Source: an uncultured Erysipelotrichaceae bacterium (GTDB lineage Bacteria > Bacillota_I > Bacilli_A > RF39 > UBA660). Taken from it: a stretch of DNA of 64,000 bases. Each line of letters starts with the position of its first letter. The stretch's first letter is position 1. The notes under the pieces were generated by a model. The model ran no database searches. It saw only the letters and a program-made list of their open reading frames with translations, and was not told the origin of the DNA. The stretch is taken from positions 48,395 to 112,394 of the forward strand of contig CACYRE010000001.1 of NCBI GenBank assembly GCA_902776735.1, given 5' to 3'. Shown here piece by piece: positions 29,479 to 29,901 of the stretch. The translations under genes were made by a program, and so were the position numbers.

Positions 29479-29901
29479 TTAATCCTGTGCTTGTTCTAAT
29501 CTTTTTCGATAATTAATCTCCATTATTAAATGGTCTCTTAAAGCGTCTCTACAATTTCTACAAACGAGTTCTCCATTTATTAGAAACTTACTATCGCCTA
29601 AATCATTTCCACAAGAACATTTAGGTTCTTTATTAGTTTCTAATATAACTTTATGTTTTAAAACTCCTCTATCCCAATAAGTTTCATCATTTTGAGATTC
29701 TTCTAATGTTTTTTGTAAAGATGATTTATTTTCATTTTCTATATTATTCAGGCCACTTTCTGAGTCATTTTCTTCTTTTTCTAATATAATTTTATTTCCA
29801 TCTACAGAAATATTTAAATTATCTCCAATAGAAATATTTAAATTATGTCTTATTTCTGCTGGAATAGTAACTCTATTTCCATCTCCAACTTTACCTATCA
29901 T
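29479..29901 (-). CDS. AbrB/MazE/SpoVT-family (swapped-hairpin) DNA-binding protein with C-terminal zinc ribbon
   Basis: MIGKVGDGNRVTIPAEIRHNLNISIGDNLNISVDGNKIILEK matches AbrB N-domain pattern (GRVVIPIELRRTLGI..D.LEI.VD..KIILKK); C-term CSCGN...CRNCR. Confidence 0.7.
   Translation of the reverse strand: MIGKVGDGNRVTIPAEIRHNLNISIGDNLNISVDGNKIILEKEENDSESGLNNIENENKSSLQKTLEESQNDETYWDRGVLKHKVILETNKEPKCSCGNDLGDSKFLINGELVCRNCRDALRDHLIMEINYRKRLEQAQD

Follow-up and report, generated by a model that had tools for sequence, protein, structure and literature searches.

An AbrB-like gene beside the phage DNA polymerase

The locus lies within a 64,000-nucleotide stretch of DNA (the window) from an assembly of an uncultured Erysipelotrichaceae bacterium (GenBank GCA_902776735.1, contig CACYRE010000001.1, forward-strand positions 48,395 to 112,394). 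The window has a GC content of 25%, and all but one of its open reading frames (ORFs) of at least 80 amino acids are on the same strand. The functions that it encodes are of phage type: a DnaB-type helicase, a family-A DNA polymerase (PolA), an SNF2-type helicase, an ATP-dependent ligase, an amidase/endolysin, a GIY-YIG endonuclease and a D5-like regulator/helicase. A gene for a 140-residue AbrB-like protein occupies 29479..29901 of the minus strand, stop codon included, running from an ATG at 29901 to a TAA at 29479. This assignment is supported by the ORF list, by full-length homologues (P0002–P0004) and by about 30 further representative clusters. Five nucleotides ahead of the ATG, the sequence reads AAGGAGA (29907..29913, minus strand), a Shine–Dalgarno sequence that overlaps the 3′ end of a 69-aa ORF. 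This small ORF (29912..30121, minus strand) is the only one separating the AbrB-like gene from PolA (30134..32713), and its counterparts in all PolA-linked loci have 66–68 residues and 54–79% identity. Downstream lie a 219-aa gene (28759..29418, minus strand) and the SNF2-type helicase gene (26956..28470). The 219-aa protein has an acidic N terminus and a conserved C-terminal part of 160 residues, is 58–79% identical among loci, and matched nothing in Pfam, PDB or PADLOC. An earlier note, made from the letters and their ORFs, had placed the AbrB-like gene in a replication module beside DNA polymerase, and this placement held up.

The order of these genes is conserved. In loci L001–L013, on contigs of up to 125 kb, it reads DnaB … PolA, 66–68-aa ORF, AbrB-like gene, ORF of about 215 aa, … SNF2, as far as the contigs reach, with an extra ORF of about 185 aa ahead of the AbrB-like gene in some of them. 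The AbrB-like gene is downstream of PolA in 12 of the 13, and the AbrB-like proteins encoded there are 22–64% identical to that of the window. In a further relative, L036, the upstream genes differ and the succession AbrB-like, 212 aa, SNF2 is retained. Wherever a contig runs past the AbrB-like gene, the 219-aa gene comes after it. This kept order points to a vertically inherited core gene of the phage clade rather than an accessory one, and on synteny the gene does not appear to be a recently captured host gene. The gaps from the AbrB-like gene to the 69-aa ORF and from that ORF to PolA are 10–12 nt, which suggests a single transcript; the AbrB-like gene is therefore probably co-transcribed with PolA. 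Pfam, PHROG and PADLOC gave no toxin or defence match among the gene's neighbours, making a classical antitoxin role in a toxin–antitoxin system unlikely. A search for operator-like repeats found only weak AT-rich repeats in the 576 nt of intergenic sequence that precede the PolA block, and a promoter scan gave fewer hits than expected from shuffled sequence.

A conserved hairpin behind the gene

The 60-nt spacer behind the AbrB-like gene contains a hairpin of 17–18 bp (29426..29468, minus strand; dG about −20 kcal/mol, z −5.4), whose palindrome is unique in the window. Its 3′ arm includes AGGAGG, the Shine–Dalgarno sequence for the downstream 219-aa gene. Conservation of the hairpin extends to seven related loci, though it is shorter in one. 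Each stem substitution affects one side and retains G-U or G-C pairing, the sole exception being one change in the outermost predicted pair. These pairing-preserving changes fit a DNA operator less well than an RNA element that masks the Shine–Dalgarno sequence or a leaky terminator. The stem begins 9 nt past the AbrB-like stop codon; since a terminating ribosome would touch only its base, translational coupling is uncertain, though possible.

Relatives in metagenomic phage contigs

A word-index search returned three relatives of the AbrB-like protein, and a HMMER search of 1.84 billion representatives returned 347 matches at E ≤ 1e-3. Among the best 150 of the 347, about 30 share a three-part build: an AbrB domain, a variable acidic linker, and a Cys4 motif followed by a helix. 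Roughly another 25–30 of the same 150 are bacterial AbrB-type proteins with one or two AbrB domains, in which CxFCG-x14-CxxC comes straight after the last strand. Members of the family all derive from metagenome assemblies and none has been given a name by any source; the full-length relatives are all on phage-like metagenomic contigs. A narrow-alignment scan of 185,579 species genomes gave matches to the N-terminal domain and no full-length relative. Translation of these N-domain loci yielded canonical AbrB proteins of about 80 aa, from Clostridia, Eubacteriales and Bacilli metagenome-assembled genomes and from Candidatus Frackibacter. IMG/VR contains a single relative, L036. Among 50,697 GenBank phage records, neither megablast with 8 kb of the locus nor tblastn with the AbrB-like and 219-aa proteins gave a match, and all matches to PolA were below 32% identity, which suggests a phage without a cultured relative. 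On these searches, the AbrB-like family is found only in metagenomic phage contigs and appears to be specific to this phage clade.

An AbrB/SpoVT-type N-terminal domain

Residues 1–45 (29767..29901, minus strand) form a predicted swapped-hairpin DNA-binding domain of the AbrB/MazE/SpoVT type, as judged by PF04014, TIGR01439 and matches to PDB sequences. PF04014 (MazE_antitoxin) matches residues 4–44 with 35.8 bits against a cut-off of 24.7 (E 7.9e-9), and the AbrB-family domain model TIGR01439 matches the same residues with 39.6 bits against 28.3. In the family, PF04014 matches 28 of 29 proteins. Among PHROGs, the N-domain matches phrog_4681 best (E 1e-11), a family with an antitoxin annotation. 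A profile built from the window protein and its three closest homologues retrieved the N-domains of AbrB, Abh and SpoVT as the top solved structures (E 2e-7 to 1e-4), far ahead of MazE structures, which reached only E of about 1 in the same search of PDB. The SpoVT model TIGR02851, which joins an AbrB N-domain to a C-terminal GAF domain, matched the N-terminal 68 residues only, with 25.3 bits against an equivalog cut-off of 235.9. In an AF2 monomer model, the N-domain consists of strand 2–4, helix 15–21 and strands 28–34 and 37–42, with pLDDT of 60–71.

The AbrB/MazE looped-hinge N terminus that the earlier note had read from the letters is thus borne out, and a Pfam hit of the AbrB kind, whose absence had been named beforehand as counting against it, was found. 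Sequence comparison confirms the ORF as an AbrB/SpoVT-type N-domain protein, a member of the swapped-hairpin superfamily. Of the four arginines with which AbrB contacts DNA (R8, R15, R23 and R24), R15 aligns with R10 of the phage protein, which is nearly invariant in the family, and R23 aligns with R18. AbrB R8 is replaced by G3 in the window protein, and by lysine in most family members; AbrB R24 is replaced by H19, at a position that varies across the family. R23/R24 of AbrB are required for DNA binding (PMC9598496).

A Cys4 module with a predicted treble-clef fold

The C-terminal part of the protein, residues 91–140 (29482..29631, minus strand), comprises a putative Cys4 zinc module and a 25-residue amphipathic helix, delineated by the invariant cysteines, the AF2 model and the profile relation to bacterial proteins described below. 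It carries the motif C95-S-C97-G-N … C114-R-N-C117-R, as the earlier note had recorded, and the protein has no other cysteine. In the alignment of 29 family sequences, in which mean column identity is 24%, C95, C97, C114 and C117 are the sole invariant columns. The invariance of these four cysteines is far beyond chance and is strong evidence for a metal site. The first pair is CxxC in most family members and CxC in the window's clade.

An AF2 monomer model of residues 89–140, made from a 24-sequence alignment, has a pLDDT of 93.4. Its topology is a short knuckle with the first cysteine pair, a β-hairpin and then the 25-residue helix (27–51 in model numbering), with the second cysteine pair directly before and within the first helical turn. 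Because the second pair sits on the first turn of a helix, the model places the module with treble-clef fingers, such as CsfB/Gin or the ClpX N-terminal domain (NTD), rather than with classical two-knuckle zinc ribbons. The earlier call of a C-terminal zinc ribbon was therefore right about the four conserved cysteines, while the predicted fold departs from a ribbon.

Searches with the module gave weak matches of a consistent kind. A Foldseek search with the C-terminal model found nothing significant; its weak matches were all treble clefs (LIM, uS14 type Z, RING, GATA and nuclear receptors), and the weak sequence matches of the zinc profiles were to LIM, S14-Z, the ClpX zinc-binding domain and Gin/CsfB. 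The Gin family PF10764 matches 13 of the 29 family members at 17–20 bits, all under its 27-bit gathering score. DUF4428 (PF14471) matches 11 of the 29 at E < 1, and only P0032 (28.9 bits) exceeds its gathering score of 27.8 bits. One bacterial relative matches zf-C4_ClpX, again under the curated cut-off. For the window protein, Pfam gives no zinc-finger family, and neither Gin nor ClpX (PF06689) nor DUF4428 is matched. A profile of the zinc module of bacterial AbrB proteins, searched against PDB, reached 5n7y at E 0.17 and ClpX at E 0.08, and hhalign of the zinc profiles with one sequence each of CsfB and the ClpX NTD gave probabilities of 52–86%. We read the likeness to CsfB and the ClpX NTD as a resemblance, not as membership of either family.

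An acidic linker with a conserved motif

The two modules are joined by an acidic linker (residues 46–90; 29632..29766, minus strand; pI 4.5), delimited by its composition and poorly modelled, with pLDDT of about 50. It is 45 aa long in the window protein, and family members have linkers of about 45–120 aa. Residues 74–83 (29653..29682, minus strand) read TYWDRGVLKH and belong to a conserved motif, YW(D/E)xG(V/I)LK, that is common to 16 distinct family sequences and occurs twice in P0017. AF2 predicts a β-hairpin here with low confidence.

A second BLASTP high-scoring segment pair (HSP) had suggested reading the linker as a second, degenerate AbrB domain, by comparison with the bacterial proteins that have two AbrB domains in tandem before the zinc module. 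Profile–profile comparison of the linker with AbrB N-domain profiles gave P 0.8, which did not exceed the result of a reversed control. We rejected the idea because the profile score was at control level and the zinc module accounted for the HSP.

The AbrB-like gene evolves faster than its neighbours

We computed identities between the window and six related loci for each gene of the block. The replication genes and small ORFs are well conserved: PolA is 66–82% identical to the window, the 69-aa protein 63–79%, the 219-aa protein 58–79% and the SNF2 helicase 74–88%. The AbrB-like protein is 28–55% identical over its whole length, with 33–49% in the N-domain, 26–56% in the linker and 20–56% in the zinc module, so that all three parts diverge much faster than the neighbouring replication genes. 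The AbrB-like gene is the fastest-evolving of the block, by two to three times relative to the surrounding replication genes. Its N-domain is nearer to those of clostridial AbrB proteins (50–65%) than to those of its own phage orthologues.

A possible oligomeric regulator of the replication phase

We considered how these features might fit together. The best-supported reading, to which we give about even credence, is by analogy with AbrB that the protein is an oligomeric DNA-binding regulator, or a DNA-organising protein, that acts in the replication phase and multimerises through its zinc finger. The N-domain would pair with that of a second copy to form a swapped-hairpin barrel that binds DNA. 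From the monomer model and the analogy with AbrB, we infer that the Cys4 finger would bind zinc and, together with the long amphipathic helix, would offer a second self-association surface, giving tetramers or higher oligomers as the C-domain of AbrB does. The acidic linker would extend the range of the DNA-binding heads and may include a motif for docking. The protein would be made together with the replication proteins.

This reading is supported by an N-domain that scores over the family cut-offs, by AbrB, Abh and SpoVT being its closest solved relatives, and by the retention of R10 and R18. The invariant Cys4, the treble-clef model, the build shared with clostridial AbrB, the kept gene order and the short gaps also argue for it, as do the multimerisation of the AbrB C-domain (PMC9598496) and the dimerisation of CsfB and the ClpX NTD (PMC5890618). 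It is weakened by the lack of counterparts for two of AbrB's four key arginines, R8 and R24. There is also no candidate operator near the operon, the sole strong palindrome nearby looking like an RNA element, and the window protein matches no zinc-finger Pfam family. Finally, a regulator of conserved phage sites would not be expected to diverge so rapidly.

The closeness of the N-domain to clostridial AbrB might instead mean that the protein mimics host AbrB, occupying its sites or forming mixed oligomers with it, and reprogrammes transition-state and sporulation genes alongside the SpoVS-like protein. We think this unlikely. The zinc module is also related by profile to that of bacterial AbrB, and a SpoVS-like ORF lies in the same window at 6444..6719, matching phrog_35646 ('sporulation protein') at E 1e-14 and sharing 39.5% identity with B. 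subtilis SpoVS. AbrB and Abh are reported to bind as homomers and/or heteromers (PMC3025583), and phage abrB and spoVT genes have been proposed to manipulate sporulation (PMC10294663; bioRxiv 10.1101/2021.07.15.452460). Rapid evolution would fit the tracking of a host partner. However, the acidic linker and the long helix are not found in host AbrB, the equivalents of R8 and R24 are lost, the 185,579 species genomes scanned gave no full-length relative, and no recent transfer is evident. Genes for host takeover are usually found in variable accessory regions, whereas this gene is fixed in the replication module of every relative. The earlier suggestion that the phage carries two host developmental regulators is correct in that an AbrB-type domain and a SpoVS-like ORF are both present. 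It is overstated as to AbrB, because the protein lacks the AbrB_C domain, has an acidic linker, is without a full-length relative in the species genomes and is a core gene of its phage clade.

Conserved adjacency could also indicate that the protein pairs with the 219-aa protein as an antitoxin-type regulator or chaperone, in a ratio fixed by the hairpin; we regard this as distinctly unlikely. The two genes are adjacent in every locus with enough contig, including L036 with its different upstream genes, the hairpin that masks the downstream Shine–Dalgarno sequence is conserved and starts close behind the upstream stop, and the best PHROG of the N-domain is annotated as an antitoxin. In type II toxin–antitoxin systems an AbrB/MazE-type protein comes first and its partner second, an arrangement with which the gene order agrees. 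Yet the 219-aa protein is acidic, highly conserved and without a toxin or defence family match, it would be unusual for a large, apparently lytic phage to have a toxin–antitoxin pair fixed in its core replication module, and a ribosome that reaches only the stem base leaves coupling uncertain. The location of the gene in 12 of 13 loci, with DNA polymerase on one side and helicase on the other, a DnaB-type helicase and a ligase nearby and a transcript probably shared with PolA, might point to an origin-binding or replisome-organising protein in place of a transcription regulator. We consider this very unlikely, as we know of no AbrB-fold origin-binding protein, no iterons or AT-rich repeat arrays were found adjoining the gene, and its rapid evolution contrasts with the conservation of replisome proteins.

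It is most improbable that the treble clef is the business end, capturing a host sigma factor or a ClpX adaptor or substrate, with the AbrB domain serving only to dimerise or tether. The weak Gin matches in 13 of 29 members, the zf-C4_ClpX match in a bacterial relative, the hhalign probabilities against the CsfB and ClpX NTD sequences, and a cysteine spacing and ligand position that match those of CsfB (PMC5890618) would fit such a role. Against it, all of these matches are under curated cut-offs and driven by the cysteine pattern, the window protein matches neither the Gin nor the ClpX family, and Foldseek returned neither CsfB nor ClpX. A composite of these ideas would make the protein a remodelled clostridial AbrB at the core of a lytic phage, one that co-assembles with host AbrB or captures a sigma factor or adaptor and so blocks the transition-state or sporulation programme during replication, its fast evolution reflecting partner tracking; this we hold to be improbable.

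Phage-borne AbrB-domain genes have already been reported, and a protein of this kind is fairly ordinary and known. What is new here is the clostridial-type AbrB build with a motif-bearing linker and an extended helix, its fixed place in a replication module and its fast evolution. If the oligomeric regulator that we propose is real, phages would have their own version of a regulator design that is very common in Firmicutes, produced while DNA is being replicated. Such a protein could help to address how large virulent phages that infect spore-forming or other low-GC hosts organise transcription or act against the regulators of the host.

Comparison with known systems

The closest counterparts are the clostridial-type AbrB proteins of about 80 aa (loci L015–L030), of which MKSTGIVRKVDELGRVVLPIELRRTLDITEKDALEIYVDGNKIILKKYEPDCIFCGNAKDISVYKGKNICSECLRDLMKKK is an example. 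Compared with this example, the window protein has 50% identity over 46 aa in the N-domain (E 2e-12) and a match in the zinc part at E 1e-3. In clostridial-type AbrB proteins and the phage protein alike, the N-domain module precedes the zinc module. Their N-domains are 50–65% identical to that of the window, and their zinc modules align with the phage modules at hhalign probabilities of 93.5–96.4% (E 2e-7 to 1e-9), with a shared second-pair motif, (N/K)G(K)x(I/V)CxxC…L. In the clostridial proteins, CxxCG-x14-CxxC follows directly behind the N-domain without a linker, whereas the phage protein has an acidic linker (45 aa; about 50–120 aa in relatives) bearing YW(D/E)xG(V/I)LK. The first knuckle is CxC in the window's phage clade and CxxC in clostridial AbrB, the helix after the finger has 25 residues as opposed to about 10, and the phage gene, unlike clostridial abrB, is phage-borne and within a replication module. 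These similarities in both domains suggest that the phage protein has the two modules of clostridial-type AbrB, with a linker inserted and the helix lengthened. The earlier note's fusion of AbrB to a zinc domain thus stands as to the two modules, but by these comparisons it is not an unusual or novel fusion.

B. subtilis AbrB and Abh (PF04014 plus PF18277, AbrB_C) share the N-domain fold, with about 49% identity over 41 aa by hand count. They may also share a two-domain logic of a DNA-binding dimer with a C-terminal multimerisation domain, the latter function being proposed on the phage side. The C-domain of AbrB mediates multimerisation, and its Cys54, a residue conserved across both Bacilli and Clostridia, is required for AbrB to multimerise and to bind DNA (PMC9598496); the first cysteine of the phage module sits at the position of Cys54. 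B. subtilis AbrB has this single cysteine and no linker, whereas the phage protein has the Cys4 and the linker and has lost the R8 and R24 equivalents. PF18277 gave no hit in the window protein at E ≤ 10, compared with 62 bits for a B. subtilis AbrB control. With no AbrB_C match, no full-length relative in the species genomes scanned and a 45-aa linker, the window protein is not an AbrB orthologue.

We also asked whether AbrB_C could be a relative of the zinc module that lacks zinc. The register was suggestive, but hhalign with a single sequence gave P 0.03–0.05 and the bacterial zinc profile (A4) retrieved no AbrB C-terminal domain from PDB; neither result gave significant support for a relation. 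As a separate observation, the Clostridia-type AbrB proteins recovered here have a Cys4 module, predicted to be a treble clef, in place of the zinc-less multimerisation domain of B. subtilis AbrB with its essential Cys54, and we found no published description of such a module in Clostridia-type AbrB. This module and the fast evolution of the phage regulator are of specialist interest; neither alters current concepts.

CsfB/Gin (PDB 5N7Y) and the ClpX NTD (PDB 2DS5-8) have the same ligand layout as the phage finger, with two cysteines on a knuckle, two on the first helical turn, and about 15–17 residues between the pairs. Both are treble clefs that form obligate, tight homodimers and act as small dimerisation modules (PMC5890618). 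They differ in that sequence similarity to the phage finger is sub-threshold and there is no Foldseek match, and in that the phage finger is C-terminal to a DNA-binding domain. The MazE/PemI antitoxins and phrog_4681 share the swapped-hairpin N-domain; MazE/PemI antitoxins have an unstructured toxin-binding tail and a toxin gene, whereas the phage protein has a zinc finger and no adjacent toxin gene.

AbrB-domain proteins are among the transcription factors of jumbo phages (PMC7824862). The 'sporulation genes' of gut phages include abrB and spoVT, for which manipulation of sporulation has been proposed (PMC10294663), and the same has been proposed for phage abrB genes next to quorum-sensing systems (bioRxiv 10.1101/2021.07.15.452460). 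Like the window gene, the homologues from gut phages and temperate Bacillus phages are detected by AbrB/SpoVT domain models, possibly in phages of spore-forming hosts. They are accessory genes, often of temperate phages and near quorum-sensing genes, whereas the window gene belongs to the core of a phage clade with genomes of about 125 kb and 25% GC and lies in the replication module.

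A conserved hairpin beside a fast-evolving AbrB-like gene

Within the block that runs from the PolA gene to the SNF2 helicase gene (window positions 26956..32713), the AbrB-like gene evolves much faster than any other: when the window is compared with six related phage-like metagenomic loci (L001, L003, L007, L009, L010 and L012), its identity is 28–55%, versus 58–88% for its neighbours in the block. Between this gene and the gene for a 219-aa protein lies a conserved minus-strand hairpin (29426..29468) with a stem of 17–18 bp and no second copy in the window. The hairpin is kept in L001, L002, L003, L007, L009 and L012, and in a shorter version in L010. 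Its 3' arm contains the AGGAGG Shine-Dalgarno sequence of the 219-aa gene, and UUUUAU comes after the hairpin. All stem substitutions in the related loci retain wobble pairing, a pattern that suggests an element acting at the RNA level, which would either mask the Shine-Dalgarno sequence or serve as a leaky terminator.

The linker of the AbrB-like protein is acidic and otherwise variable around a conserved short motif, YW(D/E)xG(V/I)LK (29653..29682, minus strand), which could dock a partner. The motif occurs twice in P0017, another member of the family (residues about 63–72 and 113–122), and is absent from several subfamilies.

Other genes of the window

The proposal in the earlier note that the same phage carries a SpoVS-like gene was borne out: a 91-aa protein (6444..6719, minus strand) matches phrog_35646 'sporulation protein' (E 1e-14) and is 39.5% identical to a B. 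subtilis SpoVS sequence entered by hand. The sequence matches of a 724-aa protein (7874..10048, minus strand) make it another candidate for a transcription factor of the phage, the second in this window; its N-terminal part is helicase-like (phrog_16), and its C-terminal part matches phrog_323 'transcriptional regulator, D5-like' in four stretches, as well as sigma-factor-like HTH families.

Upstream of the PolA block, and separated from it by a 576-nt intergenic region, is a GIY-YIG homing-endonuclease-like ORF (33656..33988, minus strand). In the related locus L013 (319..2453), PolA was called as two overlapping ORFs of 480 and 238 aa; a frameshift, an error in the assembly or an interruption of the gene could each account for this. 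A minus-strand tRNA gene (42947..43028; Rfam RF00005, 44.7 bits) was given a four-base anticodon, 'gtat', and no amino acid by ARAGORN; either the anticodon loop is unusual or the call may be an artefact.

A Cys4 module in clostridial AbrB

Our literature search turned up no publication in which the AbrB of clostridia is presented as a zinc protein, and no statistical support was obtained for homology between its Cys4 module and AbrB_C (PF18277). In the ~80-aa AbrB of Clostridia/Eubacteriales (loci L015–L030 from GTDB genomes, P0045, P0191 and others), an invariant CxxC(G)-x14-CxxC comes straight after the DNA-binding domain, in the place taken in B. subtilis AbrB by Cys54 and a multimerisation domain that lacks zinc.
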